Source: Escherichia phage inny
Sequence record: MN850601.1
DNA length: 64,000 nt
Direction: 5' to 3' (one strand)
Shown here: piece after piece, positions 27,112-42,309 of the stretch
How positions within the stretch are numbered: the stretch's first letter is position 1
Layout of the letters: each line of letters begins with the position of its first letter
Made by a program: the position numbers and the translations under genes
Notes under the pieces: generated by a model
Databases searched by the model: none
Told to the model about the DNA's origin: nothing
The model's input: the letters and a program-made list of their open reading frames with translations, nothing else

Positions 27112-27381
27112 CTAAAATGATTCGTTTGTCTCCATAATATATTGCATTTCCAAATCTTCCATATGTTTCTTAAATTGGTAAACAATTTCCGATGGGGAAA
27201 TATCTATATCAAAAAGTTCTTTTGTACCAGAATAAAATCTAATACCATCAACAATAAGACCACCATAATAATCCCAATCACTTTCTCGTGAGAAAGGGTT
27301 AGGTTCTTCATAATAGTAATCTACTTCAACAATAATAGGTTCTTTATTATCTTGTTTATACTCAAAATCAAAAGTGTTCAT
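27112..27381 (-). CDS. hypothetical protein
   Basis: 89 aa; TAATG stop/start coupling with upstream glycosyltransferase gene. Confidence 0.4.
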   Translation of the reverse strand: MNTFDFEYKQDNKEPIIVEVDYYYEEPNPFSRESDWDYYGGLIVDGIRFYSGTKELFDIDISPSEIVYQFKKHMEDLEMQYIMETNESF

Positions 27382-28325
27382 TATAAATCCTCGATAAGCA
27401 GTCTGCGGGTTTCATTTAAATCATCAATATTGTAGTTATCTCTTACATACTTAGCAAGAGCCAATCCCTTCTCAATACAAACATCAGGAGATTCGATTAA
27501 GTATTCTACAATATCTTTCCACTCTTTAACTGAATCAGCAAAGAAGATTAGATCTTTAAATTCTTCAGTATAATAGTTCTCTCGTGGTGAACAAACGAGT
27601 GGCAAACCTTTAGCACCAGCTTCAAGAATTTTTAAATTACTTTTGGCATTATTAAAATGATTATTTACTAATGGAGCTATGGAGATTTGATGACCATCGT
27701 ATGCTTCCATATAACACTCATAAGGACGAATACCTTCATAAACACAATCTGGTTGAATATCTTCTTTAATTTGCAACCATTGAGCACTACTTAACTCTTC
27801 GTGATCTCTACGAAATCCACATAAAGTTAAATCTTTACCAAAACCAGGAAGAATTGCTAAATCATGTTTATGTGTTTCACTTCCCGCCCAAACTAGTGGA
27901 CTTTTAGAATAACGGTCTTTCGTAAGAACAAACTGTCCTTCATCAAAAGGTAATCCGTTAGGCACAATATGTACATTATCATTGTATTGGCTTAATTCAA
28001 CCTTTAATGCCGGAGTTGTTGTAGTTACAAGATCGCTTCTTTCAAGGAACCATTTTAGGTCATCTCGGATTTGATTTTCAAATAGTCCTTCAAGCATATG
28101 CCCTTCAGGAATAATTAAAGAATCATCCAGATCCATTACCAATTTAAACCCAAGTTGTTTAAGAGCCAGGAAACCTGGCTTTCCACGTGTTGGTACTCCA
28201 TTGAACACAAAAATATTATGCTTAGGATTAATTGTCAGTTTGCGTTTATATGGCAAAATGATTCTATGAAAATCACATATACTATACTTTTCATTTCCGC
28301 GTGTGTCAAGAATAATATTAGGCAT
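27381..28325 (-). CDS. glycosyltransferase, GT-B fold (GT1/GT4-like)
   Basis: 314 aa; C-terminal NAKSNLKILEAGAKGLPLVCS resembles GT4 E-x7-E region; AAGGAG RBS. Confidence 0.6.
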   Translation of the reverse strand: MPNIILDTRGNEKYSICDFHRIILPYKRKLTINPKHNIFVFNGVPTRGKPGFLALKQLGFKLVMDLDDSLIIPEGHMLEGLFENQIRDDLKWFLERSDLVTTTTPALKVELSQYNDNVHIVPNGLPFDEGQFVLTKDRYSKSPLVWAGSETHKHDLAILPGFGKDLTLCGFRRDHEELSSAQWLQIKEDIQPDCVYEGIRPYECYMEAYDGHQISIAPLVNNHFNNAKSNLKILEAGAKGLPLVCSPRENYYTEEFKDLIFFADSVKEWKDIVEYLIESPDVCIEKGLALAKYVRDNYNIDDLNETRRLLIEDL

Positions 28326-28336
28326 ATATCTCCTTG

Positions 28337-29311
28337 TTAAAGACTTTCAATAACTTGACGACGCAGTTCATTGGCATCTGCAAGATTATAATTAAGACGA
28401 ACGTGTTCTGCAAGCATCATACCACGATCTTCTGTGTATCTAGGGTTCCTCATTAGCTTGACAACTTCATAATGCCAAGATGCTTTAGAGTCTGCATAGA
28501 TAACAGCCTTTGCATCTACCGGATTGAAGTACGGCAGCACAGGAGAACAGATAATAGGAAGACCCTTTGCACCTGCTTCCAAAATCTTCAAATTGCTTTT
28601 ACAGTTGTTGAAGTCATTATCTACCAGGGGAGCAATTGCAATACTGTGACCGTCATACACAGACATATACTCACCTAAATTTTTAATAGCTGGTTTATAC
28701 TGTGCATTTGGAATCTTACGTTTTATTTTAACCCACTCCGCAGTAGTTAGATACTGACTATTATTTCCAACAGGTGCAGAAGGATACACTTCATACCCTG
28801 CAATTGTCAATAGTGTATCATCAAATGTATTAGCTACAAGAGATAAATCAGGTTCGTGGCTTGCTCCTCCAGCCCAGATAATAGGCGTGTCAGAATTACG
28901 GTCTTTTGTCAAAGTAAATTGACCTTCGTCGTAAGGTAGTGCGTTTCTAATAACGACAACATTACGATTTAAATGACGAATTTTGTAAGCTAGGTATTCT
29001 GTTGTTACAGTAACAACATCTGCTAACTTGACCATCTCTACAATAGTCTTTGAGTGATTAGTAAATACGCCAGCCATATAATGTTCAGGATTAAGTGAAT
29101 AAAAATCATCTAAATCAACAATAATCTTAACACCTTGTGCCTTCAGGCGTTTAACCTCGTCTGCTCCACGAGAATACACTCTATTAAAAACTAAAACGTC
29201 TTTCTTAGGTTTAAACGTATTTCCAGCAAATGGCATTACAATACGATGGTAATCACAACCACTGCCTAACTTATTATCACACTTAAGTACAGGAGTATTA
29301 GGATTTACCAT
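28337..29311 (-). CDS. glycosyltransferase, GT-B fold, paralog of 27381..28325 (start set at internal ATG 29311)
   Basis: Colinear similarity to neighbour including CKSNLKILEAGAKGLPIICS; N-terminus aligns from MVNPNTPV; GAGGAGG RBS. Confidence 0.6.
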   Translation of the reverse strand: MVNPNTPVLKCDNKLGSGCDYHRIVMPFAGNTFKPKKDVLVFNRVYSRGADEVKRLKAQGVKIIVDLDDFYSLNPEHYMAGVFTNHSKTIVEMVKLADVVTVTTEYLAYKIRHLNRNVVVIRNALPYDEGQFTLTKDRNSDTPIIWAGGASHEPDLSLVANTFDDTLLTIAGYEVYPSAPVGNNSQYLTTAEWVKIKRKIPNAQYKPAIKNLGEYMSVYDGHSIAIAPLVDNDFNNCKSNLKILEAGAKGLPIICSPVLPYFNPVDAKAVIYADSKASWHYEVVKLMRNPRYTEDRGMMLAEHVRLNYNLADANELRRQVIESL

Positions 29312-29984
29312 ATTTTTGAGCCTCCTCATAAGAGATAAAAGTTTTACCATTGCGAAGATCCTCCAGTGATTGTTTATATTGTTCCCAGTTTACACCAATC
29401 CCCTGTTCTTTCTCTTCTTTTGACAGATTCGCAAAAGGTAAAGGATTATCTCCAAATACATCATCAGGATGGATAAACGCCATAATTCGAATAGGACATG
29501 GCACGCCTTGAATACCTCGGTTCAAACCTGCCAGTGGAACGCGATGAATCCACTCTGCATCTTCATATCCATAACCGTGGGTGTATGAGCGGAAATAGCC
29601 AGCTTTCTCAATAACTGCACGGGAATACATACCAAACTGGCACATACCTAGTTCCCAAATAACCACTTCCCCTTCAATACCTTTTACTTTATCTTTAAAG
29701 TATTCAGGCATACCAAAGAAATCCCAACCATTTTCCTTCGCCTGTTTTACAAAATATGTTTCCCAACCTTGAACAACAGGATAGCAATCATCATCAAAAA
29801 TAAACCAGTAATCATACCCTTCATCATAAAACTTTTTCATCAGTTCATTACGAGCATATGCAACACCTTTTCGTTCACGATCATACTGTACAACAAAAGT
29901 AGCATTAGGATCAGTCACAAGATAATCTTTAAGAGGACGCTTACCTACAGTAATAACACCAACACCAATTTTTGTATTTTCCAA
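29298..29984 (-). CDS. glycosyltransferase, GT-A fold (family 2-like)
   Basis: 228 aa; VGVITVGKR...DYWFIFDDDCYP with DxD-type acidic motif; TTG start after AAGGAG. Confidence 0.55.
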   Translation of the reverse strand: MENTKIGVGVITVGKRPLKDYLVTDPNATFVVQYDRERKGVAYARNELMKKFYDEGYDYWFIFDDDCYPVVQGWETYFVKQAKENGWDFFGMPEYFKDKVKGIEGEVVIWELGMCQFGMYSRAVIEKAGYFRSYTHGYGYEDAEWIHRVPLAGLNRGIQGVPCPIRIMAFIHPDDVFGDNPLPFANLSKEEKEQGIGVNWEQYKQSLEDLRNGKTFISYEEAQKYGKS

Positions 29985-29993
29985 AATAACTCC

Positions 29994-30557
29994 TTAAATA
30001 ATTTTATTCATGTCTTGACAATGTAAAAGGTGTGAAACAGCTTTTCTAGGATCATCATTACCTAAACGGTAGGTGTGAAATAAATATAACCCACGTAATA
30101 AACCTAGCCTTTTGTTGTTAGCATGTAATGCTTTAGAGAAAATTATATCAAACTGTATTGACCTTTCCTCAAAAGGGATTTCATTCCACAGACTCTTACG
30201 AAAGAGAAGAAAGAATCCTGCTAAGATAGCATCTGTAGGTACTTCCTCTATTGAGTTTCCCCATTCTAGATGTGCTCTTTTTGCAATCTCAATGTGGTGT
30301 AATATATTCGGATCTTCACTTCTTTCATTATTAAATAATTGATATGTTGATCCCAATCTGTTACAAGATGCACCAAGAACATCAAAATCAGGATTTGAAC
30401 GGACAATTGATTCCAGCCAAGCAGGTTGTTCTGGAAGAAGAAACATTGTATCAATGTCTCTTAGGCAAATCCAACTATCTTCTGGTAAGACACTTATTGT
30501 GTCATTGATACCTTTTCCAATATCTCCAGAAAGATAGGGAGTTATGTGAAATATCAT
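29994..30557 (-). CDS. putative glycosyltransferase-like protein (GT-A-like N-terminus)
   Basis: 187 aa; N-terminal GDIGKGINDTISVLPEDSWICLRDIDTMF resembles GT-A nucleotide-sugar binding start. Confidence 0.35.
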   Translation of the reverse strand: MIFHITPYLSGDIGKGINDTISVLPEDSWICLRDIDTMFLLPEQPAWLESIVRSNPDFDVLGASCNRLGSTYQLFNNERSEDPNILHHIEIAKRAHLEWGNSIEEVPTDAILAGFFLLFRKSLWNEIPFEERSIQFDIIFSKALHANNKRLGLLRGLYLFHTYRLGNDDPRKAVSHLLHCQDMNKII

Positions 30558-31295: not shown

Positions 31296-31305
31296 CTATA
31301 TCTCC

Positions 31306-31815
31306 TTAGCGATAAAATTGATGTTCTTTGTAGCGGTACACTAGAACCATATCTTTTTCCCAGTGTGCTCTTATTGTAGATTTTTTAAAGTATAATGCTC
31401 CTTTTGTAATATCTAATGCAATTCGTAATTCTGGAAAATGCGTATCGAGATAAAGTAGACGTTCTGCTATAGCCTTAGCTTCCTTCCACTTATCACGTTC
31501 CATAACGTTGAATGTCTTTGTGTAAGAGAATTGTCCTTTTTGAAACAAAACTTCTTTTATAGTATCAGGGAAATATGAATCTCTAGCCCTATTCAATACT
31601 ACATTACCAACAGCAGACATACCGCGCTTTCCTTGATTACGACTTTCTGCATAGATTGCACAAGCTAATAGATTTTCTTTACTATCACGCTTTGTACACT
31701 TGTGAACTACTTTAGCAGTTTTTACGTTTGCAGCTTCGGCTTGCGCCACAACAGGTGTAAATGTAAAAGCAGTTAAGGATAGTAACGCAATTGCGACAAA
31801 GGTTTTTATTGACAA
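31306..31815 (-). CDS. secreted cell-wall hydrolase, SleB/Hydrolase_2 family
   Basis: TTG start after AGGAGG; signal peptide ending VVAQA; core CAIYAESRNQGKRGMSAVGNVVLNRARDSYFPDTIKEVLFQKGQFSY. Confidence 0.65.
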   Translation of the reverse strand: MSIKTFVAIALLSLTAFTFTPVVAQAEAANVKTAKVVHKCTKRDSKENLLACAIYAESRNQGKRGMSAVGNVVLNRARDSYFPDTIKEVLFQKGQFSYTKTFNVMERDKWKEAKAIAERLLYLDTHFPELRIALDITKGALYFKKSTIRAHWEKDMVLVYRYKEHQFYR

Positions 31816-31848
31816 ACTTGCCTCCTATTTTGTTAAACGAACTTTTAT

Positions 31849-31876
31849 TGTAACACAGAAGAGGCTGTTTTGCAAG
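31849..31876 (-). promoter_or_regulatory. candidate sigma70-like promoter for SleB-like gene
   Basis: Minus-strand TTGCAA, 16-nt spacer, TACAAT, about 35 nt upstream of start codon. Confidence 0.4.
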
Positions 31877-31878
31877 TG

Positions 31879-31898
31879 GAGGGGGGATAATCCCCCTC
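31879..31898 (-). terminator. GC-rich hairpin (terminator candidate, no clear U-tract)
   Basis: GAGGGGG-GATAAT-CCCCCTC inverted repeat just downstream of gene 31909..32511. Confidence 0.4.
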
Positions 31899-31908
31899 TT
31901 AGACTCTG

Positions 31909-32511
31909 TTAGATATTGTAAACCTTTGTATGAGTTACTACACCATCTTCTACAAAATCAATACGTTCTTGATCCGTAACTAGTGCAGACAACACTTTAA
32001 ATTTAATTTTTACACGTTCAAAAGCTGGTTGACCATCTTTAAGATAATTATGTTCGGTTGTCACTGTCTTGTTTACAAAATCAACTTTCGCTTTACCGTT
32101 TTCGCGCAAGTGGAATGTTTTTCCTGCTTTATACACAATTTCAACATTACCTTCGAGAGTAATTCCTTCAAAAAGTTCACCCTCTTCTTCATTTTCTTCA
32201 CTTTTGAACAGACGACGAAACTCTTCCATATCAAGATAAACAACATCTTCAGAATAACTATCAGTAAGGTATGTCTTACCATCCATTAACCCGAAATATT
32301 GCCAGATCGCAGAATAAACATCACTAGTTGATCCAAGGGTTTCTCTGAGTTTAGTTCCACGGATTACTTCATAAACTTCAAAATTGAAACCAGACTGCAA
32401 AGCATCAAACAGTACATCACTAACTTCTACAGCATAATCTTGATTGTTGTCAACATCCACAAGAAAATTGCCGCTACGAATAAGTTTTTGACCTTCTAAA
32501 GTAATACCCAT
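31909..32511 (-). CDS. hypothetical protein
   Basis: 200 aa; AGAGGAG RBS; no TerD signature recognised. Confidence 0.45.
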   Translation of the reverse strand: MGITLEGQKLIRSGNFLVDVDNNQDYAVEVSDVLFDALQSGFNFEVYEVIRGTKLRETLGSTSDVYSAIWQYFGLMDGKTYLTDSYSEDVVYLDMEEFRRLFKSEENEEEGELFEGITLEGNVEIVYKAGKTFHLRENGKAKVDFVNKTVTTEHNYLKDGQPAFERVKIKFKVLSALVTDQERIDFVEDGVVTHTKVYNI

Positions 32512-32536
32512 TGTTTTCTCCTCTTTTATTTAAAAT

Positions 32537-32556
32537 ATGCGCCCCGAAGGGCGCTA
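32537..32556 (-). terminator. hairpin terminator downstream of TerD gene
   Basis: GCGCCC-CGAA-GGGCGC hairpin; minus strand followed by ATATTTTAAAT. Confidence 0.45.
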
Positions 32557-32563
32557 TGATTTA

Positions 32564-33160
32564 TTACTCGAACCAATCGTCGCCAGCGCCAAACGCTTTA
32601 ACTACATCGTAAATGTCAAGCCCAGCTTTACCCACACCATACGCTTTCAGTTTCCATTCGCTATCTTCTCGCACCAGGGAGGCAACGTGGCAAATGGTAT
32701 TACCTGCAAGTTCTGGAGCTAAGAAATCAAAATCCAGCAGTTCAACGTTACGTTCATCATCGAAGATTTTAAGGAAACCTTCGGTAGCGTGACCAAGGCG
32801 TTTTTTACCCGTTTCGTCATCAATAGTAATTACGAATGCAATTTCCTGTGCTTCAGCAGAGATATTATCCAGCGTAACATCAATCTGCTCCATCTGTCCT
32901 ACACCGTCACGAACATCTTCACCTGCAAAAGTAGAACGTTCAGGATCAAATTTCTGTGCGTAGCATACCAGGTGGCGAGGAGACAACAGTTCCGGCAGAC
33001 CAGATGCATTGTGTCGGCAAATCAGAGCACTAACATCCAGATCCAGTTTTTCGTTAGATTTCCAAGAGAATTCCAGACGAATGCGTTTCAGTGCTGGTGC
33101 AATCTTTTTCAGAGAAACTTTTTCGCTAGAACCTTTTTTCAGGGAAATTTTCTGAGTCAT
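32564..33160 (-). CDS. terD: TerD-family protein (tellurium-resistance TerD/TerE/TerZ-like)
   Basis: 198 aa; ISLKKGSSEKVSLKK, LDLDVSALI, ITIDD and C-terminal EWKLKAYGVGKAGLDIY closely follow the TerD pattern. Confidence 0.8.
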   Translation of the reverse strand: MTQKISLKKGSSEKVSLKKIAPALKRIRLEFSWKSNEKLDLDVSALICRHNASGLPELLSPRHLVCYAQKFDPERSTFAGEDVRDGVGQMEQIDVTLDNISAEAQEIAFVITIDDETGKKRLGHATEGFLKIFDDERNVELLDFDFLAPELAGNTICHVASLVREDSEWKLKAYGVGKAGLDIYDVVKAFGAGDDWFE

Positions 33161-33232
33161 AATTTATTATCTCCTTTGTTGTTAATTTACGTTGTCTATT
33201 TTACTAATCTTTTCTACAAAGTCAAGCGTTTT

Positions 33233-34027
33233 TTACGCTTTTGCTCCAAATTTTTTAACCCACTCGCCAAACTCTTCGGATAGCAGTTTATCGTAAAGTT
33301 CTTCGTCAGACAAGGACAAATCTGCAATACCGATAAAATCAACATTATCGTATTCTTTTGCCAAGTCTTTCAGGAATTTAAAGTTTGCATTACCTACACC
33401 AACCATAAACCAGTAAACAGGAGTGTTGCGGTGTTTGTTCAGCAAACTACGTACTGCTGAAGTATCCATGTTCTCCCCGTCAGTTTGGAAGAAAATCATT
33501 GCAGGAGTACGATCAACTTGTGCATCAGTATCTACAACCTGTTCTACAACAGTACGTGTAACTTCTACACGTTCTTTTTTACCAGTTAGTTTAGCAAGGA
33601 AGCCCTTAGCCGGAACTTCTTCATACTCAACGACTTCGCGTGTAATATTTTTCATAGGTACACTACCGAAGTATGTATCATAGATCTCTTGCATTACTGG
33701 AGCATAAGCTGTACCACCATTGATGCAAACATTAGACATACAAGAGCCGACATAATCATCATATACATCAGCCGTTGCAGGAGGCAGTTCAAAAGAAGAA
33801 CTATTGAAAGCCCACATGTCAATCTGTGCATTATCATCAAACTTCATACCAAACGGCAGCAGCTTACCTACAAAATCACTGACAGTGCCATCACGATACA
33901 GCTCACACATACTACCCGAAATATCTAAGGCGCTACCTACACGAAGAACAACATCGTTAATCTTTTTCTTACGCAGGGATACAGTAAGAGTTTCTTGACG
34001 TTTTTTAAGACTGATTTTATTGGACAT
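33233..34027 (-). CDS. von Willebrand factor A domain protein (TerY-like)
   Basis: 264 aa; MIDAS motif ALDISGSM, later IFFQTDGEN; adjacent to TerD as in ter-type neighbourhoods. Confidence 0.7.
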   Translation of the reverse strand: MSNKISLKKRQETLTVSLRKKKINDVVLRVGSALDISGSMCELYRDGTVSDFVGKLLPFGMKFDDNAQIDMWAFNSSSFELPPATADVYDDYVGSCMSNVCINGGTAYAPVMQEIYDTYFGSVPMKNITREVVEYEEVPAKGFLAKLTGKKERVEVTRTVVEQVVDTDAQVDRTPAMIFFQTDGENMDTSAVRSLLNKHRNTPVYWFMVGVGNANFKFLKDLAKEYDNVDFIGIADLSLSDEELYDKLLSEEFGEWVKKFGAKA

Positions 34028-34028
34028 A

Positions 34029-34298
34029 TTATTTCTCCTTTCTGACTGTAATGTTAGTAACTTCTAAATCCACTTCTACCACTTCTGTATCATATAAAAT
34101 ACAGTTAAGTTGACCTCTTTGTGAACCGTTCAGACACATTGCTTGGTTTGTATTAACCTTAATAAACACTAAGTTTCTGAACGTATCTAAACCAGCATCT
34201 TGATAGGCAACATAATATACGAATGTATCACCTGTGTCAAGTTCTCCAAAACATTTAGGTTCATCTGATTTGTCGTCTTTGATATTAAATTTAAGCAC
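34029..34298 (-). CDS. hypothetical protein
   Basis: 89 aa; GTG start after AAGGAG, 8-nt overlap with upstream gene. Confidence 0.35.
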   Translation of the reverse strand: MLKFNIKDDKSDEPKCFGELDTGDTFVYYVAYQDAGLDTFRNLVFIKVNTNQAMCLNGSQRGQLNCILYDTEVVEVDLEVTNITVRKEK

Positions 34299-34854
34299 TG
34301 TCTTCTCCTTTACCTGCTCTCAAGCCTAAATAGAAAGCCTCTCTGGTGATCTTTTGCAACTCGTTTAAAGAGATAGTTACAACTAAATCATCTTCAATTT
34401 CTAGCTTTGAGTCTTCTTCTGTCTCAATGCAAGTATTATGCACTTTGTGGTAAGGATTGTCAACACGTTTAAATTTATTATTTTCAGTGCTGAAGAAGCA
34501 ATCTGGATCTTCTTCCCCATCACCCCAACCCTGGTTAGGATCTTCTTCAGATCTTTCTGTTGGGATCTCGCCTGTAAAGTGCTCTTCTAATACCAGAGCA
34601 ATCCCATCTCCAAGATCGGAAGAGAACATCAAATTACAAACTTCTTCCCAAGGCATAGACCACTTAAATCTTTTACGATTGCCATGTTTATCTTCTTCGT
34701 TAGAGAAAACACTACCATAGCTATCATAATTCCCATACATCTCTTCGACAACCTTACCACCTTTCAAAAGAAATAGGTAGCAAGGAGAGCCATCGAAAGA
34801 GGTAGAAAGAGCAGCATTACCAGACTCTTTGCACAAGAAACTAAAACACCCCAT
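34291..34854 (-). CDS. hypothetical acidic protein
   Basis: 187 aa; TAATG coupling with upstream gene. Confidence 0.4.
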   Translation of the reverse strand: MGCFSFLCKESGNAALSTSFDGSPCYLFLLKGGKVVEEMYGNYDSYGSVFSNEEDKHGNRKRFKWSMPWEEVCNLMFSSDLGDGIALVLEEHFTGEIPTERSEEDPNQGWGDGEEDPDCFFSTENNKFKRVDNPYHKVHNTCIETEEDSKLEIEDDLVVTISLNELQKITREAFYLGLRAGKGEDSA

Positions 34855-35054
34855 TATACACCAGCCTTAAGATCAATTAAAGCCAAAGTTGTTTCAGAGT
34901 GTGTTTGCTCGTCTACAGGTGCAGTCATATGATAATACAAAAAATCTTCGGCATCATACCAATCTGATTCTTGACCTTGTTTCCAACCATCAATGAAAGC
35001 ATCTTCCATAATGGTTTGCAATTCTTCACGAGTTAAGTGAATATCTTTACTCAT
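34854..35054 (-). CDS. hypothetical protein
   Basis: 66 aa; TAATG coupling. Confidence 0.35.
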   Translation of the reverse strand: MSKDIHLTREELQTIMEDAFIDGWKQGQESDWYDAEDFLYYHMTAPVDEQTHSETTLALIDLKAGV

Positions 35055-35260
35055 TACACATTTTCCTCTTTTACCAATTCCATTGTTGAATTGTCAAAAC
35101 CATCTTTAGAAGAATAGGTATAGACAGCACGTAGTTCTCGCAGGACAGTGAATACATTAGGATCATCTAACCAAGCATCCTGGAGGAGAACATAACGATC
35201 TTCATTGTCATACTGGACAGCAATCATAGAGCCAGACAGTTTGTAAATTTTAATATTCAT
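35054..35260 (-). CDS. hypothetical protein (start at internal ATG after AAGGAG)
   Basis: ORF 35054..35287 overlaps TelA-like gene; ATG at 35260 has AAGGAG RBS just after TelA stop. Confidence 0.35.
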   Translation of the reverse strand: MNIKIYKLSGSMIAVQYDNEDRYVLLQDAWLDDPNVFTVLRELRAVYTYSSKDGFDNSTMELVKEENV

Positions 35261-35273
35261 AATATATTTCTCC

Positions 35274-36377
35274 TTAAAGTAGACCACGTTTAACAGTTTG
35301 AATCATACCATCTTCAAGAGATTGCACTTCTTGAATGTAATCAATACGAGCAGCACGGGCTTCAGTGTTGATTCGGTTAGTTTCTTCCAACATTTTAACT
35401 AAGTTTTCTTGATCACGACGCAATGTTTCAATATCCAATACTTGACGATTAGCAAGTTGTGTAGCTTCAATCTGGTTTTGTGCAGCCAGATCACTACCCA
35501 TTGCAATAGCAGCATTAAATTCATTCAGTACGTTGTTCTGTGTATCGGCTGCTTTCTTCTGGCGCAGACTTTCAATATACATAGAAAAGTTTGCAGAGTA
35601 AGCAGGAATAACATTGTTCACAATATTACGGGCTGATCGCATCAAACTTGCAGATACTTTCTGCATACTTTGTACACGTGGCCCCATCTGAACGCACAGT
35701 AAGCGTAAGGCTTTCAGGTCTGCAATACGAATTTCAAGCAGATCCATAGTGTCACGAGTACGTTGACGCTCTTCTACTTCATTTTCAGGTAGTGTATTAA
35801 GGCGAACTTCTTCTTTTTCATAAGTAGCTGTTAGAAGCTCTATATCCCTGTTTAAGCTAAGAGCATATTTTGCAATAGCCTCCTCTAAACGTTGCAGATA
35901 TCGTAAAGAATCTTCTTCTTTTTTCAAGTCTGTTTGGAGTGTCTTTACCAAACCCTCAATACGATTATTGATGGTGTCAAATTCTCCAAACAAATCTTCT
36001 TTCATACCTAATACTTTCTTAACTAACTTACCTAAACCTTTAGATTGTTTAATAGAATTAGGATCAAGTTGCTTTGCTTGCTTAATAAGTGCAGTTAAAC
36101 GTTCACTCATTTCATCTCCCTGAGATGAACGCTGGTGTTTAAGCACTTCAGCATTAAGGTTACGAAGAGTAAGTCCTGCATCAGCACCAACTTGTTCAAT
36201 CTCTTCACGAGACATTGGAGGCAGCATTTGTACAGGTCGTGCAACAGCAGGGGCATATACAGGACTTGCATCCATAGCACTTGGAGCAAACAAAGACTTA
36301 CTTTTTTCTGTTGTTGCCGTGAATACACTCATTTCAGACGGTTTGCTTTTTACGGCACTGATAAAAGGACTGGACAT
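35274..36377 (-). CDS. telA: TelA-like protein (toxic anion resistance / KlaA family)
   Basis: 367 aa mostly helical; LDPNSIKQSKGLGKLVKKVLG...FDTINNRIEGL matches TelA layout as recalled; sits in the Ter cluster. Confidence 0.55.
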   Translation of the reverse strand: MSSPFISAVKSKPSEMSVFTATTEKSKSLFAPSAMDASPVYAPAVARPVQMLPPMSREEIEQVGADAGLTLRNLNAEVLKHQRSSQGDEMSERLTALIKQAKQLDPNSIKQSKGLGKLVKKVLGMKEDLFGEFDTINNRIEGLVKTLQTDLKKEEDSLRYLQRLEEAIAKYALSLNRDIELLTATYEKEEVRLNTLPENEVEERQRTRDTMDLLEIRIADLKALRLLCVQMGPRVQSMQKVSASLMRSARNIVNNVIPAYSANFSMYIESLRQKKAADTQNNVLNEFNAAIAMGSDLAAQNQIEATQLANRQVLDIETLRRDQENLVKMLEETNRINTEARAARIDYIQEVQSLEDGMIQTVKRGLL

Positions 36378-36445
36378 TCAATTTCCTCCATATTCTTTAG
36401 TAGATGGTGATACCTCTGTACCACCATCATAACACAAATTAAGTA

Positions 36446-37297
36446 TTAAACAAACATATCTAAATAATTTGTAGTAATAAATGCTCCATCTGCTTCCAGA
36501 TTAACATAACCAGTAGCATTAGTGGTTAAGAAATCCAGATCGAAGGACTCTTTAACACCCCGTACCTCAACACGAGAGATATCGAATACAGGTAGTGTAA
36601 CAGCCTCTTCGTGCAATACCGTACCTTTGTAGGTTGCCTTAATGATAAACTTGATATTACCCGTTCCAGCATCATACAAAACACTTTCAAACCCTTTGAG
36701 AGTATATTTATCACCAGAAGTGAAGTGCAAAGTTGCTTTGTTTACAGTACGTTTTTTACGAGGAGTTCCTTTCACACGTTTATGATCACTACGTTTTTTG
36801 TATTTAGGAATGAATACAAACGATACACTCTCAAGAAAGGTATCAACATCAAGGATTTTAATATCCTCTGTTGCAGCAAATTTTGAAGTCGTTGCATCAA
36901 AATGCTTTTCCCTGCGATCATACATAAAGATATCAAACCGATCTTCTAAATCAAACAAATTATGTATTTTAATTTCAGAATGCTTGCGCATTGCAGCAAC
37001 CTTGAACTCTTCAAAACGTGGGTGTTCTACAAGTTCTTCAAGTTTTACACCAAAGACAGTATATTGCTTCGAAGTCTTTTCTGGTGTTGGCATTACAGAA
37101 GCATAATCACCGATTGCGCTCTTAAAGCAAAATTGTTCTTGACCTGTATTTTTACCAACGAATTTACAGTATTCGTCATTGTGCATACTTTCCTTAGTAG
37201 TACCAACAAACTCAAAACCATCTTTATTCTTCTCAAGGATTTCTTGATTAAAGATCCAACCTTCCAGGCGATATACTTTACCAACTTCTAGTTTCAT
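36446..37297 (-). CDS. hypothetical protein
   Basis: 283 aa; AAGGAG RBS. Confidence 0.45.
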   Translation of the reverse strand: MKLEVGKVYRLEGWIFNQEILEKNKDGFEFVGTTKESMHNDEYCKFVGKNTGQEQFCFKSAIGDYASVMPTPEKTSKQYTVFGVKLEELVEHPRFEEFKVAAMRKHSEIKIHNLFDLEDRFDIFMYDRREKHFDATTSKFAATEDIKILDVDTFLESVSFVFIPKYKKRSDHKRVKGTPRKKRTVNKATLHFTSGDKYTLKGFESVLYDAGTGNIKFIIKATYKGTVLHEEAVTLPVFDISRVEVRGVKESFDLDFLTTNATGYVNLEADGAFITTNYLDMFV

Positions 37298-37332
37298 CTG
37301 TTTCTCCTTCTTATTTAATCTGTATTAAATTA

Positions 37333-37923
37333 TTAACGACGACGTGAGCTACTAAAACTACGTTTCGACGAAGAATAACTTTTCGAAGACTTACTATAAG
37401 AGCTAATAGGGCTTGAGTAAGACTTACGAGCAGAGTAATCACTATTCACTTTTGTTGTTGACGGGCGTGAATACGTTTGTACACTTTGCTGCTTAATTGT
37501 GTTTTGTTTAGTGGTTGTATATTTATTTCCTTGTTTATCATAAAAACTATGCTTTTGTGTTGTATATGCTTTACTGTTAGTTGTAGGAGCAGCGTTGTTA
37601 TTAATAATTGTTGTACTGCTACCACCATCTCTATAACCGCCACCGCCACTATTACCACTCAACATATGACCAAGAAGCATACCTGTAGCAAACTCACCTA
37701 CACCAGAAGAACCACTGCCGCCTCCTTGCACAACAACTGTTGAAGGTTGTGCAGGTGCTGCTTGAACAACTTGAGGTGCAGGTTGATTTACATATTGTTC
37801 ATCTACCATCTGATTTGGTGTTTGTTGGTAACGTTGATTTTGTACATTTTCAGAATCATCACAACCTACCAGCAATGCACTACCTAATACAACTGCAACA
37901 ATAAAAGATTTAATGTTTTTCAT
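37333..37923 (-). CDS. lipoprotein with glycine-zipper segment (start at second ATG)
   Basis: Signal peptide with lipobox LLVGC; Gly-rich GGGSGSSGVGEFATGMLLGHMLSGNSGGGG; Ser/Gln-rich tail. Confidence 0.5.
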   Translation of the reverse strand: MKNIKSFIVAVVLGSALLVGCDDSENVQNQRYQQTPNQMVDEQYVNQPAPQVVQAAPAQPSTVVVQGGGSGSSGVGEFATGMLLGHMLSGNSGGGGYRDGGSSTTIINNNAAPTTNSKAYTTQKHSFYDKQGNKYTTTKQNTIKQQSVQTYSRPSTTKVNSDYSARKSYSSPISSYSKSSKSYSSSKRSFSSSRRR

Positions 37924-38116
37924 TTGTAACCCTCTCATTTAAAGTCTCAACACAATTTTTAAAATCCCTAGAGAAACAATACATCTGTTCTCCGTTCCTG
38001 TTGATAGTAATTGTATGGTTATCAATATATGTTGTCAAGATAAAAATCAAACAAAACAACCCTAGAGCAAAACAAATATTTTCAAACAGAATCCAAAGAA
38101 CACGTAAAACCACCAT
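37910..38116 (-). CDS. small hydrophobic protein
   Basis: 68 aa with one hydrophobic helix. Confidence 0.3.
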   Translation of the reverse strand: MVVLRVLWILFENICFALGLFCLIFILTTYIDNHTITINRNGEQMYCFSRDFKNCVETLNERVTNEKH

Positions 38117-38155
38117 CAGATCACCTCAACAAAGCCCCCGAAGTGGCTTAATGAA

Positions 38156-39133
38156 TTAAGCAACAGTCTGGTCTTCTTTTTCAGGGAAGATTAAACTTGC
38201 AATAACACCCAACCCAAGAGTACCTAACACAATATACATACTGATCGTCGGATCAATGTGTGCTGGCAGGAAACTCACTTTTGCGTGCAGAGTTTCTGCA
38301 AACGGATGATACATCAGTTTTACACCCACAAACACCAGGACTACGATAACTGCTTTCTCCAGATGAACCAAATACTTCAGTGCAACACTAAGAACAAAGA
38401 ACAGAGCACGTAAACCTAAGATTGCACAAAGCATCGAAGAGAACACCAGCAGAGGTTCTTGTGTCACTGCAATTACTGCTGGAACAGAGTCTACTGCAAA
38501 GATTACGTCTACCATTTCCATTACAAACACACAAACCAGAGCCGGAGTTGCTACACGAACACCATTTTTGATTGTGAAGAACTTCTCACCATCCATCTGA
38601 TCAGATACAGGGAACAGCTTACGAACAATACGAGTAGCCCAGTGTTTAGAGTAATCAATTTCTGCATCATTATCCCCAGCGAATACCATTTTAGCCGCAC
38701 AGAAAAGGATGACAGCACCGAAGAAGATATTAACATACCAGCCCAAACTCAACAAGTAAGTACCTACTGCTACAAACACACCTCGGAAGACAATTGCACC
38801 TGCAATACCCCAAAGTAGAATCTTGTGCTGCAAGTGTGTGCTTTTAATACCAAAACTTGCGAAGACTGCCACAAATACTACTAAGTTATCTACAGAAAGA
38901 GATTTCTCCAACACATAACCACTCAAGAACAAGCTCGCAAAATCAGCACCGTGTTGGAAGTATACAAAACCATAGTAGGCTAATGATACCCCAATCCAGA
39001 AAATTGACCAACCAATTGCAGATTTAAATGAGATCTCTTTGTTTTCTCTGTGTCCAAAGAAGTCAATACAAATCGACAAGACTAAAATACCCACTAAAAC
39101 AACCACATCAATAATTGGGAAACCCAGTTGCAT
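38156..39133 (-). CDS. terC: TerC-family integral membrane protein
   Basis: 325 aa polytopic; EKSLSVDNLVVFVAVF and later AVDSVPAVIAVT match TerC/Alx signatures. Confidence 0.8.
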   Translation of the reverse strand: MQLGFPIIDVVVLVGILVLSICIDFFGHRENKEISFKSAIGWSIFWIGVSLAYYGFVYFQHGADFASLFLSGYVLEKSLSVDNLVVFVAVFASFGIKSTHLQHKILLWGIAGAIVFRGVFVAVGTYLLSLGWYVNIFFGAVILFCAAKMVFAGDNDAEIDYSKHWATRIVRKLFPVSDQMDGEKFFTIKNGVRVATPALVCVFVMEMVDVIFAVDSVPAVIAVTQEPLLVFSSMLCAILGLRALFFVLSVALKYLVHLEKAVIVVLVFVGVKLMYHPFAETLHAKVSFLPAHIDPTISMYIVLGTLGLGVIASLIFPEKEDQTVA

Positions 39134-39151
39134 TCTTTTCTCCTCTTTAAT

Positions 39152-39170
39152 GCGGAGGACAATCCTCCGC
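39152..39170 (-). promoter_or_regulatory. 5' leader hairpin immediately upstream of terC RBS
   Basis: GCGGAGG-(5 nt)-CCTCCGC inverted repeat ends 5 nt before the AGAGGAG RBS of terC. Confidence 0.4.
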
Positions 39171-39182
39171 TCTATGTCTTAT

Positions 39183-39210
39183 ACTATAAACTGTTTTTAA
39201 AGAAAGTCAA
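39183..39210 (-). promoter_or_regulatory. candidate sigma70-like promoter for terC
   Basis: Minus-strand TTGACT, 16-nt spacer, TATAGT directly after upstream stop codon. Confidence 0.35.
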
Positions 39211-39459
39211 CTAGTTCAGTTCTGTAATTTTAAGTTTATCTTCTTTGTTAATGATAGGGAAAGCTACAGCATCACCTACGTCATCAATAAAGCAAATAGC
39301 AATACCACCTTCCACTTTGCTAATCTGACCATTAAAGGCATGATACGGGGCAGGAACTTGATCTCCATCTTCAAGGAGAATAGCCTCGTAAACCTTGCCG
39401 ATAGTACAATCACGAGTGTTTCTAAATTTTTCAAGCACTTCAACATTTACTTTACGCAT
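39211..39459 (-). CDS. hypothetical protein
   Basis: 82 aa; GAGAGGA RBS. Confidence 0.4.
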   Translation of the reverse strand: MRKVNVEVLEKFRNTRDCTIGKVYEAILLEDGDQVPAPYHAFNGQISKVEGGIAICFIDDVGDAVAFPIINKEDKLKITELN

Positions 39460-39473
39460 ATAAAAATCCTCTC

Positions 39474-39680
39474 TTATTTGTTAGATTGAAAGATACCACG
39501 AAGTACCGCAAGAATGAACGTCACACAGACTACACTCCAAAACGTTACAGGAACATGATGCCAGTCTAAACCGATAATGTCAATCATATAGTTGTATGCT
39601 AAAAGCAGTAGCCAACTAGGGATTAACACAATCAAGAACACAACAATAAAACAACCTAATACTGCTAAAACACCTGCCAT
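39474..39680 (-). CDS. small membrane protein
   Basis: 68 aa, two hydrophobic helices; AAGGAG RBS. Confidence 0.4.
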   Translation of the reverse strand: MAGVLAVLGCFIVVFLIVLIPSWLLLLAYNYMIDIIGLDWHHVPVTFWSVVCVTFILAVLRGIFQSNK

Positions 39681-39689
39681 ACTTTCTCC

Positions 39690-40406
39690 TTATTTCAGTT
39701 TGTAAACAATTACATTTAAACCTTTGTTCACTAGAGTTTCTTCGATCATAAGTTTTACAATATTCCAAGAACCTCCAGCCAAACCACAACCAAGCATTGG
39801 TAAACCTACAATTTTACCGCCTGAAGATACAACATCGTCTCCCATACTATCTAACGCATTGTAGATAGCTTCATAATTCAGGTCACGCTTACCTTCCTCA
39901 CGACGACTATAACCATATTGTCCATATAAATTATAAATTGTCAAATTGTTTTCTGTATATTTGGTAAACGTACCTAATTTTTTATAATCACCACGTTTAG
40001 TGGCACAATCTGCTTTAAACGCACCAGGCCACTTGCTTTTAATTTTTGGTGCAATACCACTACCCATAGTGCAAAAACAGTTACAGCAGTGTGCTATAGC
40101 GTCTATATCGCCTCTCTCGGCTGCTGCTAAAAGATCACCGTATACCTCAATGATACCTGCCGGATAACTTGTTACAATTTCATCTTCCCAATACATTTTC
40201 TCTACACCACCGATCAGTGCAAAGTTTTGTGTAATGCGATCATCAATATAGTTAAGACCTGAAACATACACAGCGTATTCATCCTGTGCTGTAATACCTT
40301 GCACACGAATTCTTAAGACACCATCTTTATCTGTTGCTACACGCCCAAAATCTTTTTCTGTAATATTGGTGATAGGATCTCCGAAAGTCATTACTTTATT
40401 AGACAT
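39690..40406 (-). CDS. macro-domain protein (ADP-ribose binding/processing), start at internal ATG overlapping upstream stop
   Basis: GDLLAAAERGDIDAIAHCCNCFCTMGSGIA parallels GDIT..DAIVNAAN..GGGV; later GLPMLGCGLAGGSW; ATGTCTAA start/stop overlap with PRTase gene. Confidence 0.6.
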   Translation of the reverse strand: MSNKVMTFGDPITNITEKDFGRVATDKDGVLRIRVQGITAQDEYAVYVSGLNYIDDRITQNFALIGGVEKMYWEDEIVTSYPAGIIEVYGDLLAAAERGDIDAIAHCCNCFCTMGSGIAPKIKSKWPGAFKADCATKRGDYKKLGTFTKYTENNLTIYNLYGQYGYSRREEGKRDLNYEAIYNALDSMGDDVVSSGGKIVGLPMLGCGLAGGSWNIVKLMIEETLVNKGLNVIVYKLK

Positions 40407-41256
40407 AATAATCCCCTTTAACATTAGGTTTGTTGATAATGTTGCTTTCAAAAAATTGACGTAGGAAATCAAAGTTCTCTTTGTATTTTTCAATGTTATT
40501 GTAACCTTCTGCAAGGCAACCAAAGAACAGTTGTTCTACATAATACAAAGGAAGTTGTGAAAGTGCAATTTTAAAATCAACTTCGCTTTGACTCATTAGA
40601 TACTTAATAGGACGAACCAAACATTTAGCATCAGCTTCTTGCTTAATCATTTTAATAAAAGCTGCCAGATTATTGATATAGTTGAAGTTAAGTGCAGCTT
40701 CGGTGTTGGCTTCTGTACCTTCATACTTTGCAAAGTACAGGAAAAACGTATCGTTTTCAACACCTTCTTTGTCTAAAATTTCAATAAGTTTTTCTTCGTG
40801 TGTTCCTGTAATATTAACATCATCAATGAAAATCAGAGTTTTATTACCCCAGAAATCACGATTGATAGAGAAAGTGTCACCATCGATCAAAGCCTTACGA
40901 TCTTCTTTGCTAAGAAATCCATAATCATTGATATAGCTCACTTTACGATGAACGATATCCCACTCCACTGGTTTACCACCTTTGATAGAGATTAGGTAGT
41001 TGAGGTGATCTACAAAATGTTCAGATAACACTGTAGCTGCATTTTTCACATAGTTATATGGAGATGGAATAACAACAAAACTTTCATTTACCAGTCGTTC
41101 TTCATACTTAGAAAAGAAACTTTCAGCCAGAATGCGCCCCATTCTTTTTGCTGCCTGGTTACTACCAAACTTTAGTTTGGAATAATCTGCAATGTTAAAT
41201 TTTGCTTCCTTCAGGTTAGTAAAAGTATTAGCAAAATGTTGAATTTGATTACGCAT
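40399..41256 (-). CDS. type I phosphoribosyltransferase-fold protein
   Basis: 285 aa; KTLIFIDDVNITGTHEE matches the PRPP-binding motif hhhhDDhhTTGxT; 8-nt overlaps with both neighbours. Confidence 0.65.
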   Translation of the reverse strand: MRNQIQHFANTFTNLKEAKFNIADYSKLKFGSNQAAKRMGRILAESFFSKYEERLVNESFVVIPSPYNYVKNAATVLSEHFVDHLNYLISIKGGKPVEWDIVHRKVSYINDYGFLSKEDRKALIDGDTFSINRDFWGNKTLIFIDDVNITGTHEEKLIEILDKEGVENDTFFLYFAKYEGTEANTEAALNFNYINNLAAFIKMIKQEADAKCLVRPIKYLMSQSEVDFKIALSQLPLYYVEQLFFGCLAEGYNNIEKYKENFDFLRQFFESNIINKPNVKGDYYV

Positions 41257-41905
41257 TAATAAGTTCCTCTTTTTTAAGTTTAGCCAACAAGTCTTCTGGA
41301 TTAATAATATGACAGAACTTCATCCCTATGTCAACAGCTTTTCCATCATAAATCAAACTATCTCCAACGTGTAAAATCTCTTCTGGTGCGAGATCAAACG
41401 TCACCATTTCATCAAAAGAGAGTTTAAAAAACCTAGGATCTGGTTTACACAAGCAAAACTCGTCAGAAAAATGCATAAAGTCAAATGGTAATTTTGTTAA
41501 GCCAGAATATACAGCTAAGAAACTACCTGGTACAAAATTAGTATTGCTCTTAATACTCAAAGAGTAGGTTGAACTTAGCTCTTCCAACTTCTTGCAAAGT
41601 TCAGGATTCAATGTTGGAGGATGTTTTATAAACATTGCCAAACAATCTCTTTTTAACCCATCCACTTTATCAAGATCAATGTTCAAACGAGTAGAAAGTG
41701 TTACCCAAGCATCCTTAGACGTTCCACAAATGCCTTTTTCTGCTTTTAAATCCAAGAAAGTTTTTACCTCTTTGTATACGGTAGCTGCTTCTGCCTCAGA
41801 GCAAGAGGCATACTCGGCAATAACCTTGTTGCGCTCTTCTGCATACAAAGGGTTAGCAGTAATAAGAGTATTCCATACATCAAAAGAAATATGCTTAACA
41901 GTCAT
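41249..41905 (-). CDS. HAD-superfamily hydrolase-like protein (non-canonical motif I), start at ATG with GGAGG RBS
   Basis: N-terminal KHISFDVWNTLI in motif I position (second Asp replaced); C-terminal HVGDSLIYDGKA fits GDxxxD motif IV. Confidence 0.5.
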   Translation of the reverse strand: MTVKHISFDVWNTLITANPLYAEERNKVIAEYASCSEAEAATVYKEVKTFLDLKAEKGICGTSKDAWVTLSTRLNIDLDKVDGLKRDCLAMFIKHPPTLNPELCKKLEELSSTYSLSIKSNTNFVPGSFLAVYSGLTKLPFDFMHFSDEFCLCKPDPRFFKLSFDEMVTFDLAPEEILHVGDSLIYDGKAVDIGMKFCHIINPEDLLAKLKKEELINA

Positions 41906-42266: not shown

Positions 42267-42285
42267 AATACCCTCCATATAAATA

Positions 42286-42309
42286 AAGGAGGCTTTCGCC
42301 TCCTTTTAT
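42286..42309 (-). terminator. rho-independent terminator after AAA+ ATPase gene
   Basis: GGAGGC-(TTTC)-GCCTCC hairpin; minus strand followed by TTTATTTAT. Confidence 0.55.

Follow-up and report, generated by a model that had tools for sequence, protein, structure and literature searches.

Why does a virulent phage carry genes of the kind found in bacterial tellurite-resistance and Ter stress-response loci, and which of the genes around them belong to the set? The question arises here from a stretch of 64,000 nucleotides of Escherichia phage inny (MN850601.1; hereafter the window), in which an initial annotation, made from the letters alone, had noticed genes for TerD, a vWA protein, TelA and TerC between positions 31,909 and 39,210. 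These four genes, together with an adjacent pair encoding a HAD-superfamily hydrolase and a phosphoribosyltransferase (PRTase) of the PRTase_3 family, appear to form a six-gene cassette carried by many large virulent phages, the link between the pair and the Ter genes being strong but not obligate. A role of this cassette at the envelope of the infected cell is tentatively proposed below.

The Ter-type block of phi92-like phages

The 8.2-kb region 31300-39500 aligns in one piece, along 100% of its length and at 99.6% identity, to Escherichia phage ALITA, and is 98.5% identical, also in one piece, to phage Paula. Around 50 other Justusliebigvirus genomes are 98-99% identical to it, and coverage of the region reaches 80% or more in 54 phage records. 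A megablast search for a copy of the segment in 5,426 complete E. coli genomes returned no match. The identity to ALITA-type phages and the lack of matches among these E. coli genomes indicate that the segment is virulent-phage DNA, as the initial annotation had assumed, and not host chromosome. The source phage is a non-jumbo, phi92-like myophage (Justusliebigvirus) with a genome of 147 kb. In its annotated relative Paula, the block corresponds to phi92 gp170-gp182, the annotation mapping one-to-one onto the phi92 genes, and is flanked by DNA polymerase and T7-like primase-helicase genes on one side and by anaerobic ribonucleotide reductase genes on the other. Several GenBank records named 'Campylobacter phage', with C. 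jejuni as host (MG065639, MG065645, MG065656 and others), are 98% identical to the block, and their host label is doubtful.

The Ter block is as such an already known, catalogued feature of phi92-like phages. The genes had been annotated in phi92, a paper from 2015 lists Phi92_gp172, gp173 and gp178 as tellurium or tellurite resistance proteins, phage Ter systems have been discussed for phiKp34 and phiPsa374 and reviewed comparatively, including PRTase and HAD proteins (Iyer et al., 2021), and phage Ter genes have PHROG families of their own. Phi92 gp170-gp187 and the corresponding genes of its relatives (ALITA, Paula, alia, VEcB and others) agree with it in gene content and gene order, at a nucleotide identity of 98-99.6% and with no difference of substance, and the window represents a further isolate of this block. 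What we add is a cluster enlarged by HAD, PRTase_3 and macro domain genes, a quantification of the six-gene cassette across distant phages, checks of the calcium and metal-ion sites of TerD and the vWA protein, and a covarying hairpin in the terC leader.

All open reading frames (ORFs) of the region are co-directional on the minus strand, and profile hidden Markov model (HMM) searches place TerD, the vWA protein, TelA and TerC above the curated Pfam cut-offs, so that all four assignments hold on a single strand as first reported. TerD (phi92 gp172; 32564..33160, minus strand) matches PF02342 (E 5e-28, 98 bits versus a cut-off of 25 bits) and Klebsiella TerD (PDB 2KXT, 9e-15). The calcium ligands of the latter are residues 40, 41, 42, 78, 79 and 89 for Ca1 and 29, 82, 84 and 88 for Ca2, as listed in a passage of PMC8779313 citing Pan et al. 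(2011). In the alignment to 2KXT, the Ca1 positions correspond to D40, L41, D42, E81/D82 and E91 of the phage protein, while D88, the sole side-chain carboxylate of the Ca2 site, aligns to M90. The acidic loop of the phage protein is two residues shorter than that of Klebsiella TerD, and Asp88 is kept in several other phage TerDs. Binding of Ca2+ by the phage TerD, which had been brought forward as a clue to its function, is therefore only half supported: the Ca1 site is predicted to be intact and the Ca2 carboxylate has been replaced by methionine.

The vWA protein (phi92 gp173; 33233..34027, minus strand) belongs to the type found at the C terminus of TerF (PF10138, E 7e-39, 134 bits). With the C-terminal half of plasmid TerF it shares 27% identity and the DxSGS motif of the metal ion-dependent adhesion site (MIDAS), and it carries an insertion of approximately 45 residues relative to TerF. 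Inspection of the translation reveals a complete MIDAS (D35-I-S37-G-S39, T106, D183), whose residues fall on the LDASGSM and ITDG motifs in the alignment to TerF. The vWA domain and its MIDAS are thus as initially described, but the proposed TerY-like affiliation is not, since the best family is PF10138, 'vWA found in TerF C terminus'. The TerY-P models of PADLOC do not match the protein, and a Pfam scan of the neighbourhood found neither of the TerY-P partner domains (PP2C phosphatase, Ser/Thr kinase). We reject a TerY-P triad, or another catalogued defence system, as PADLOC returned no match for any of the Ter proteins.

The TelA-like protein (phi92 gp178; 35274..36377, minus strand) matches PF05816 (E 5e-34, 118 bits) and phrog_5890, 'tellurite resistance'. 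The phage TelA clade extends down to 39% identity and is then separated by a gap from bacterial TelA/YaaN, at 21-27%, which argues for a long residence of telA in phages. An AF2 model of the protein is all-alpha, with three very long helices, at a predicted local distance difference test score (pLDDT) of 63, and a Foldseek search of the PDB with this model found nothing at E ≤1e-3. We dropped a fold analogy for TelA, the model being of moderate quality and the matches only generic long helical bundles (BAR domains, designed bundles, AhlC). Sequence searches of the PDB with TelA, the vWA protein and PRTase_3 gave nothing useful.

The fourth protein, the integral membrane protein TerC (phi92 gp182; 38156..39133, minus strand), lies above the cut-offs of both PF03741 (E 1e-38, 133 bits) and the NCBIfam TerC/Alx model TIGR03718 (322 bits versus 246 bits). 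It shares 47% identity with the TerC encoded in the ter operon of IncHI2 plasmids and 37% with Alx of E. coli K-12, and both acidic, metal-binding membrane motifs (LEKSLSVDN and VIFAVDS) are kept. By these comparisons phage TerC is of the ter-operon type; being nearer to plasmid TerC than to Alx, it is not a recent capture of the host alx gene, a possibility that we reject. The TerC proteins of four Phapecoctavirus phages (SKA64, Mt1B1_P17, BI-EHEC and P3322) are 94-95% identical to that of Justusliebigvirus, as compared to approximately 72% for most Phapecoctavirus; in SKA64 (terC at 5814-6788 of locus L004) the genes flanking terC are only 49-65% identical, versus 95% for TerC itself. We take this as evidence of an exchange of terC alleles between the genera.

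Compared with characterized loci, the block unites a TerD domain, TerC, TelA and a TerF-type vWA protein, with PRTase_3 and HAD linked to them comparatively, and is in its family composition a reduced variant of the Ter system, neither a TerY-P triad nor a riboswitch-controlled alx. The IncHI2 ter locus encodes TerZ, A, B, C, D, E and F as well as ATP-grasp_Ter, PRTase_2-TRSP, StiP-PELOTA, a HAD-like protein and a C-C lyase. With the terZABCDEF genes of IncHI2 (R478-type) plasmids and O157 islands, the phage shares TerC (47%), a TerD-domain protein, the TerF-type vWA (27%, same MIDAS) and the idea of a linked PRTase and phosphatase. It differs from them in having one TerD instead of TerZ, A, D, E and F, a vWA protein encoded by a separate gene instead of being fused to a TerD domain as in TerF, a TelA, which the plasmid operon lacks, and a PRTase of a different family; PRTase_3 showed no BLAST similarity to the HAD-like ORF of the plasmid locus, the sole ORF compared directly. 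E. coli Alx and B. subtilis MeeF/MeeY, TerC-family proteins that export Mn and act in metalation, share with phage TerC the subfamily TIGR03718 and the paired acidic membrane motifs, but a short promoter-proximal hairpin stands before phage terC in place of the yybP-ykoY/PRE riboswitch of alx. The envelope-stress operon yceCDEFGH of B. subtilis, which comprises three TerD proteins, TerC, YceG and TelA in one transcription direction, would resemble the phage block except for presumably lacking the vWA protein and the PRTase/HAD pair. The Ter systems that Iyer et al. (2021) describe from Acinetobacter phage ME3 and Caulobacter jumbo phages, like those of phiKp34 and phiPsa374, are made of the same parts (TerC, TerD, TerF-vWA, TelA, with or without PRTase and HAD). 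The phage studied here differs from these in being non-jumbo, in gene order, and in adding a coupled macro domain, a lipoprotein and a linked SleB-type hydrolase.

The HAD-PRTase_3 pair and the recurrence of the cassette

The cluster is larger than the initial annotation had it. Just upstream in transcription, at 39690-41905, lie three further minus-strand genes. They encode a HAD-superfamily hydrolase (phi92 gp187, 41249..41905; PF00702 E 1e-5 and several NCBIfam HAD-IA models), a ComF-like type I phosphoribosyltransferase (PRTase_3, phi92 gp186, 40399..41256; PF15610 E 1e-41) and a macro domain protein of the TARG1/SCO6735/DarG kind (phi92 gp185, 39690..40406; PF01661 E 2e-7, PDB 5e3b 3e-15, PADLOC DarG 1e-13). 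Both junctions, HAD/PRTase_3 and PRTase_3/macro, are 8-nt overlaps, which suggests translational coupling. The AF2 model of PRTase_3 (pLDDT 92) has a type I PRTase fold, and its Foldseek matches are HGXPRT (6-oxopurine PRTases), PyrR and ComF (E around 1e-6, at most 18% identity). In the motif predicted to bind phosphoribosyl pyrophosphate (PRPP), LIFIDDVNITGTHEE, residues D145, D146, T150 and G151 are invariant across 46 homologues, as is the PRPP loop pattern IFIDDVxITGTHE among homologues. The nearest relatives of the macro protein are SCO6735, TARG1/OARD1 and the macro domain of the DarG antitoxin. It has an N-terminal extension of approximately 85 residues, which a 157-residue Phapecoctavirus homologue lacks, and its gene adjoins the PRTase gene only in Stephanstirmvirinae. 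It could be a stand-alone counter-defence gene directed against DarT (DNA ADP-ribosylation), outside the Ter cassette.

The genes are well preserved. Relative to Paula, we counted synonymous and nonsynonymous differences of 8/0 in terD, 10/0 in the vWA gene, 20/0 in telA and 13/2 in terC (51 and 2 for the four Ter genes pooled), and of 11/3, 17/2 and 7/0 in the PRTase, HAD and macro domain genes; by this measure they are under strong purifying selection. The TerD and TelA sequences are 100% identical in many Justusliebigvirus isolates, and the genes remain intact across genera at 65-81% amino-acid identity. A survey of synteny in related phages, which had been suggested as a check on the cluster, shows that it recurs in the same order as in the window in Phapecoctavirus, rearranged in the divergent Klebsiella phage FBKp34 (TerC...vWA-TerD-TerD-x-TelA-SleB...HAD-PRTase, with no macro domain), and in distant phages. 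Among 50,697 phage records searched with tblastn, TelA was found in 244, TerC in 176, PRTase_3 in 156 and TerD in 147.

The association of the pair with the Ter genes emerges from more distant sequences. Metagenomic phage-like contigs with a PRTase_3 45-48% identical to that of the window have Ter genes at most 10 kb away in four of five cases. A PRTase_3 profile was then run against IMG/VR, and the loci that it retrieved were annotated with HMMs built in this analysis. HAD lies directly upstream of PRTase_3 in 16/16 of these loci and in 12/12 of the cassette loci compared, and TerC, TelA, vWA and TerD all occur within 10 kb of the pair in 9/16; a tenth locus (L017) has TerC, TelA and vWA, its sequence ending before TerD. 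The pair is inserted between TerC and TerD in L019, L025 and L009 and between TelA and vWA in L027, and such embedded pairs are found in contigs of 58, 197, 211 and 350 kb, the gene order being shuffled across phages of 58-350 kb. When the ORFs of 12 loci were clustered, the shared core consisted of exactly HAD, PRTase_3, TerC, TelA, vWA and TerD, with the macro domain and the SleB hydrolase as additions specific to Stephanstirmvirinae. Since HAD and PRTase_3 also stand alone in 6 of the 16 IMG/VR loci and in Rhizobium phages, the link is strong but not obligate, and it is with this qualification that we assign the pair to the cassette.

Two side observations concern the composition of such loci. 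In seven phage Ter cassettes outside the Stephanstirmvirinae, a mostly helical protein of approximately 300 residues adjoins TerD. These proteins fall into two groups (L009 11536-12432, L010 1571-2557, L019 11529-12386 and L025 11530-12465; L007 7094-8029, L008 3001-3855 and L028 6907-7806), which hhalign links at 70% probability (E 4e-5). The protein may be a seventh component of the cassette; we detected no counterpart in the window. Rhizobium phage RHph_TM61 (L003 4093-6420) encodes a HAD-PRTase_3 pair without Ter genes, with a nicotinamide mononucleotide (NMN) adenylyltransferase/Nudix gene as its neighbour and a homologue of adenylosuccinate synthetase at a distance of a few kb, a setting that hints at nucleotide or NAD-related metabolism.

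Possible roles of the cassette

The role of the Ter module had initially been left among several options (host metal or membrane stress physiology, calcium signalling, countering host defence), a caution that was appropriate. We propose, as the likeliest reading but one that falls somewhat short of being probable, that the block encodes a membrane-linked divalent-cation module, which is expressed by the phage, stabilizes the envelope of the infected cell and excludes superinfecting phages and colicins. The block would correspond to a streamlined bacterial Ter membrane-stress system deployed in the infected cell. PRTase_3 and HAD would make a nucleoside-like small molecule acting as a ligand; TerD, the vWA protein and TelA would assemble around TerC at the inner face of the membrane and respond to divalent cations; and TerC would move Mn2+, Zn2+ or Ca2+ outward. 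The envelope and the ion balance of the cell would thereby be held until programmed lysis, and the infected cell would resist superinfecting phages and pore-forming colicins, that is, display the Phi and PacB phenotypes known from the ter operon of plasmids.

The family assignments, the purifying selection, the recurrence of the cassette and the closeness of TerC to its plasmid counterpart speak for this proposal, and the exclusion role is suggested by several lines of earlier work. The plasmid ter operon inhibits phages and colicins, with terZ, terC and terD being required, and a deletion of terC in K. pneumoniae leads to larger plaques (PMC12054061). TerC proteins export Mn and metalate exported enzymes during Sec export (PMC10550928). 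For phage Ter systems, superinfection exclusion or xenobiotic tolerance has been proposed, with PRTases and HAD phosphoesterases as the signal-biosynthesis arm (Iyer et al., 2021). According to a preprint, genomes of Phapecoctavirus and Justusliebigvirus turn up within the assemblies of bacterial isolates, a circumstantial observation that would fit host-protective genes in a persistent infection. In a bolder version, which we hold to be unlikely, the six genes would constitute a self-contained, phage-specific signalling and effector system, in which a nucleoside-like messenger made by PRTase/HAD is read by TerD, vWA and TelA at the inner membrane to gate TerC, closing the infected cell to colicins and to the DNA that rival phages inject. 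If true, this would represent a widespread, mechanistically new class of superinfection exclusion, common to large virulent phages of many hosts.

Several results weigh against an exclusion role. The authors of the phiPsa374 paper doubt that partial sets of this kind confer tellurite resistance, and in the literature we found no experiment on any phage Ter gene, those of Stephanstirmvirinae included, but annotation-level remarks only. The defence models of PADLOC do not recognize the Ter proteins. TerB (PF05099) has no match in any ORF between 31306 and 43473, even though the plasmid control does match, and ATP-grasp_Ter, C-C_Bond_Lyase, StiP and PRTase_2-TRSP were not found by a Pfam scan of the block. 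The occurrence of HAD and PRTase_3 without Ter genes in a part of the loci points in the same direction. Furthermore, we infer the timing of expression of the block from its position and from promoter-like sites only, and such sites (45 found) are not above chance (38.5 +/- 5.2 in shuffled sequence), so that only the intergenic, conserved ones carry weight.

The pair might also be no partner of the Ter proteins at all. HAD, PRTase_3 and the macro protein would then serve nucleotide or ADP-ribose metabolism or counter-defence (e.g., nucleotide salvage, or the reversal of DarT-type DNA ADP-ribosylation) next to Ter proteins acting apart at the membrane, an arrangement of two independent modules that we consider doubtful, though deserving serious attention. 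It would account for the pairs devoid of Ter genes (the six IMG/VR loci, L011 and the Rhizobium phages), which lie near NMN adenylyltransferase/Nudix, adenylosuccinate synthetase and 5'-nucleotidase genes, for the position of the trio at the border of the anaerobic ribonucleotide reductase genes in the window, for the best matches of the macro domain (TARG1/SCO6735 and the DarG antitoxin), and for the location of the pair in FBKp34, approximately 2 kb downstream of the Ter genes and past the hydrolase gene. Yet it does not sit well with the pairs embedded among Ter genes in several unrelated large phages (TerC-HAD-PRT-TerD; TelA-HAD-PRT-vWA), nor with a co-occurrence of the four Ter genes in 9/16 loci, far over background for genes present in around 0.3-0.5% of phage records; PRTase and HAD are, in addition, listed as components of Ter systems by Iyer et al. 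(2021). A simpler function in metal homeostasis, auxiliary to replication or export, seems rather unlikely to us: TerC would serve to set the cytosolic level of Mn, Zn or Ca, or to load exported phage proteins with metal, to the advantage of phage enzymes that depend on metals and under the regulation of TerD, vWA and TelA, and exclusion would play no part. Such a function would be in keeping with the conserved motifs and family score of TerC, with the annotation of Alx as an Mn2+ exporter, with the metalation of exoenzymes by TerC proteins during Sec export (PMC10550928), with the adjoining ribonucleotide reductase genes and Sec-exported hydrolase, and with the exchange of TerC between genera (95% in SKA64 versus 49-65% for its neighbours), which suggests adaptive tuning. 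It leaves unexplained, however, why TelA, TerD, vWA and PRTase/HAD travel with TerC in distant phages, and the host already has Alx. Moreover, SleB-type lytic enzymes are not known to require a metal.

The same hydrolase invites a reading in terms of lysis timing, by which the Ter proteins would keep the membrane energized so that the exported periplasmic endolysin is not activated early. Despite rearrangement, its gene, with a Sec signal peptide, has kept synteny with the Ter genes in Justusliebigvirus, Phapecoctavirus and FBKp34-like phages, and genes for small membrane proteins and a lipoprotein are interspersed among the Ter genes. This reading is nevertheless improbable, as the cassette occurs without a linked SleB homologue outside the Stephanstirmvirinae, a holin and spanins were not identified, and TerD is set apart from the hydrolase by gp171, a gene specific to the genus, and by a terminator-like hairpin. 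That the genes are host or prophage DNA, or decaying remnants without function, is already refuted by the near-complete identity to complete genomes of virulent phages, by the absence of the segment from the E. coli genomes searched and by the ratio of 51 synonymous to 2 nonsynonymous differences over TerD, vWA, TelA and TerC.

Whichever role the cassette fulfils, phi92-like phages plate on E. coli K-12, according to the hosts given in the matching records, and carry the system in a minimal form of six strongly conserved genes, which makes them a convenient genetic model for TerD, TelA, TerC and vWA. Such a model could be used to ask whether the product of PRTase/HAD is the ligand of the Ter proteins.

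The terC leader, other signals and interleaved genes

The 77-nt gap before terC contains, in order, a promoter-like site, a GC-rich 8-bp hairpin and a strong Shine-Dalgarno (SD) sequence. The sigma-70-like promoter (TTGACT-16 nt-TATAGT, 39183..39210, minus strand, intergenic) scores 10/12, and its -35 box, TTGAC(A/T), is kept in five Stephanstirmvirinae. The hairpin, GCGGAGGA-TTG-TCCTCCGC (39152..39170, minus strand), is followed by the SD GAGGAG and the ATG at 39133; it occupies the same place with a differing sequence in the five phages, four of its eight pairs showing compensatory double changes. The candidate promoter and leader hairpin that had been noticed before terC are thereby substantiated. 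The hairpin lacks a T-run on the gene strand and is therefore not a terminator for this operon; we read the leader as a 5'-terminal mRNA hairpin, with a pyrimidine arm that resembles an anti-SD sequence, since transcription of terC is predicted to start approximately 7 nt past TATAGT. The hairpin may stabilize the mRNA or tune its translation. Rfam has no match in the window at the gathering threshold, nor yybP-ykoY at E up to 10 in the terC leaders of the window and of SKA64 (Phapecoctavirus), and a Mn riboswitch of this family before terC is thus ruled out at both gathering and permissive thresholds, in a leader of only 77 nt.

A second intergenic sigma-70-like promoter (TTGACT-16 nt-TAAAAT, 33198..33225, minus strand, 10/12) precedes terD, and the equivalent vWA/TerD junction in FBKp34 bears an annotated promoter. 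Between terD and gp171 lies a perfect, GC-rich palindromic hairpin (GCGCCC-TTCG-GGGCGC, 32539..32554), which scores like a terminator on either strand; at 42285-42306, the preceding AAA-ATPase gene ends in a hairpin of a similar kind, whose tail is A/T-rich. On its far side, the minus-strand gene gp171 (31909..32511) encodes a 200-residue protein that matches phrog_22473 only and is absent from Phapecoctavirus and FBKp34, being specific to Justusliebigvirus. The secreted SleB-like hydrolase (phi92 gp170; PF07486 E 6.5e-20, endolysin PHROGs) is real as first described, but its position (31306..31815, minus strand) is outside the range 31,909-39,210 to which it had been assigned. Its N-terminal signal peptide was recognized by inspection, and it is labelled an endolysin in relatives; synteny of its gene with the Ter genes extends over three Stephanstirmvirinae lineages and not to other phage lineages.

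The remaining minus-strand genes interleaved with the Ter genes encode mostly small proteins. Four small to medium ones (phi92 gp177, gp176, gp175 and gp174; 34029..35287) match only PHROGs of unknown function. In Phapecoctavirus, gp175 is 76%, gp174 64% and gp176 50% identical, and none of gp174-gp177 was found in FBKp34 or in other cassette loci. gp175 (34291-34854) is a protein of 187 residues with the N-terminus MGCFSFLC and an acidic, Trp-rich middle, whose cross-genus conservation (76%) equals that of TelA; it has no detectable family and no homologue outside the Stephanstirmvirinae. The 283-residue gp179 (36446..37297, phrog_27504 only) shows no relation to the approximately 300-residue partner proteins of other phage Ter cassettes. 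We discarded gp171, gp175 and gp179 as hidden Ter components, as they have no Pfam or NCBIfam match and are, by BLAST and hhalign, unrelated to TerD, TelA, FBKp34 gp134 and the approximately 300-residue proteins.

Between telA and terC, gp180 (37333..37938, phrog_21570) encodes a predicted Gly/Ser-rich lipoprotein, 35% identical in Phapecoctavirus, with the lipobox LVG-C followed by Asp-Asp. It had been described as a glycine-zipper lipoprotein; the lipobox agrees with this description, whereas HMM searches yielded no significant Pfam family and no glycine-zipper family. Asp-Asp directly after the lipobox Cys is the classical inner-membrane retention signal of E. coli (Lol avoidance), and we infer that gp180 is retained at the inner membrane. 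Early phage lipoproteins are often superinfection-exclusion factors. The small, N-terminally hydrophobic gp181 (37910..38116, phrog_17591) is 49% identical in Phapecoctavirus, and its gene contains, upstream of the lipoprotein gene, a strong sigma-70-like site (TTGACA-17-TACAAT) with 11/12 matches (38038-38010, minus strand). Upstream of terC are gp183 (39211..39459), an 82-residue protein with phrog_17459 as sole match and none in Pfam, and gp184 (39474..39680, phrog_16065), a hydrophobic protein of 68 residues with probably two membrane spans that is 60% identical to an unannotated ORF of SKA64. Finally, four consecutive minus-strand genes between the Ter block and the primase-helicase gene (gp163-gp166, 27381-30557) have weak glycosyltransferase matches (Glyco_trans_1_2 at 26.9 bits, just over the cut-off, and a TET-associated glycosyltransferase at 24.1 bits, just under it). 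Their SKA64 homologues are annotated as glycosyltransferases, and the four genes may form a module for the glycosylation of DNA bases or of the envelope.

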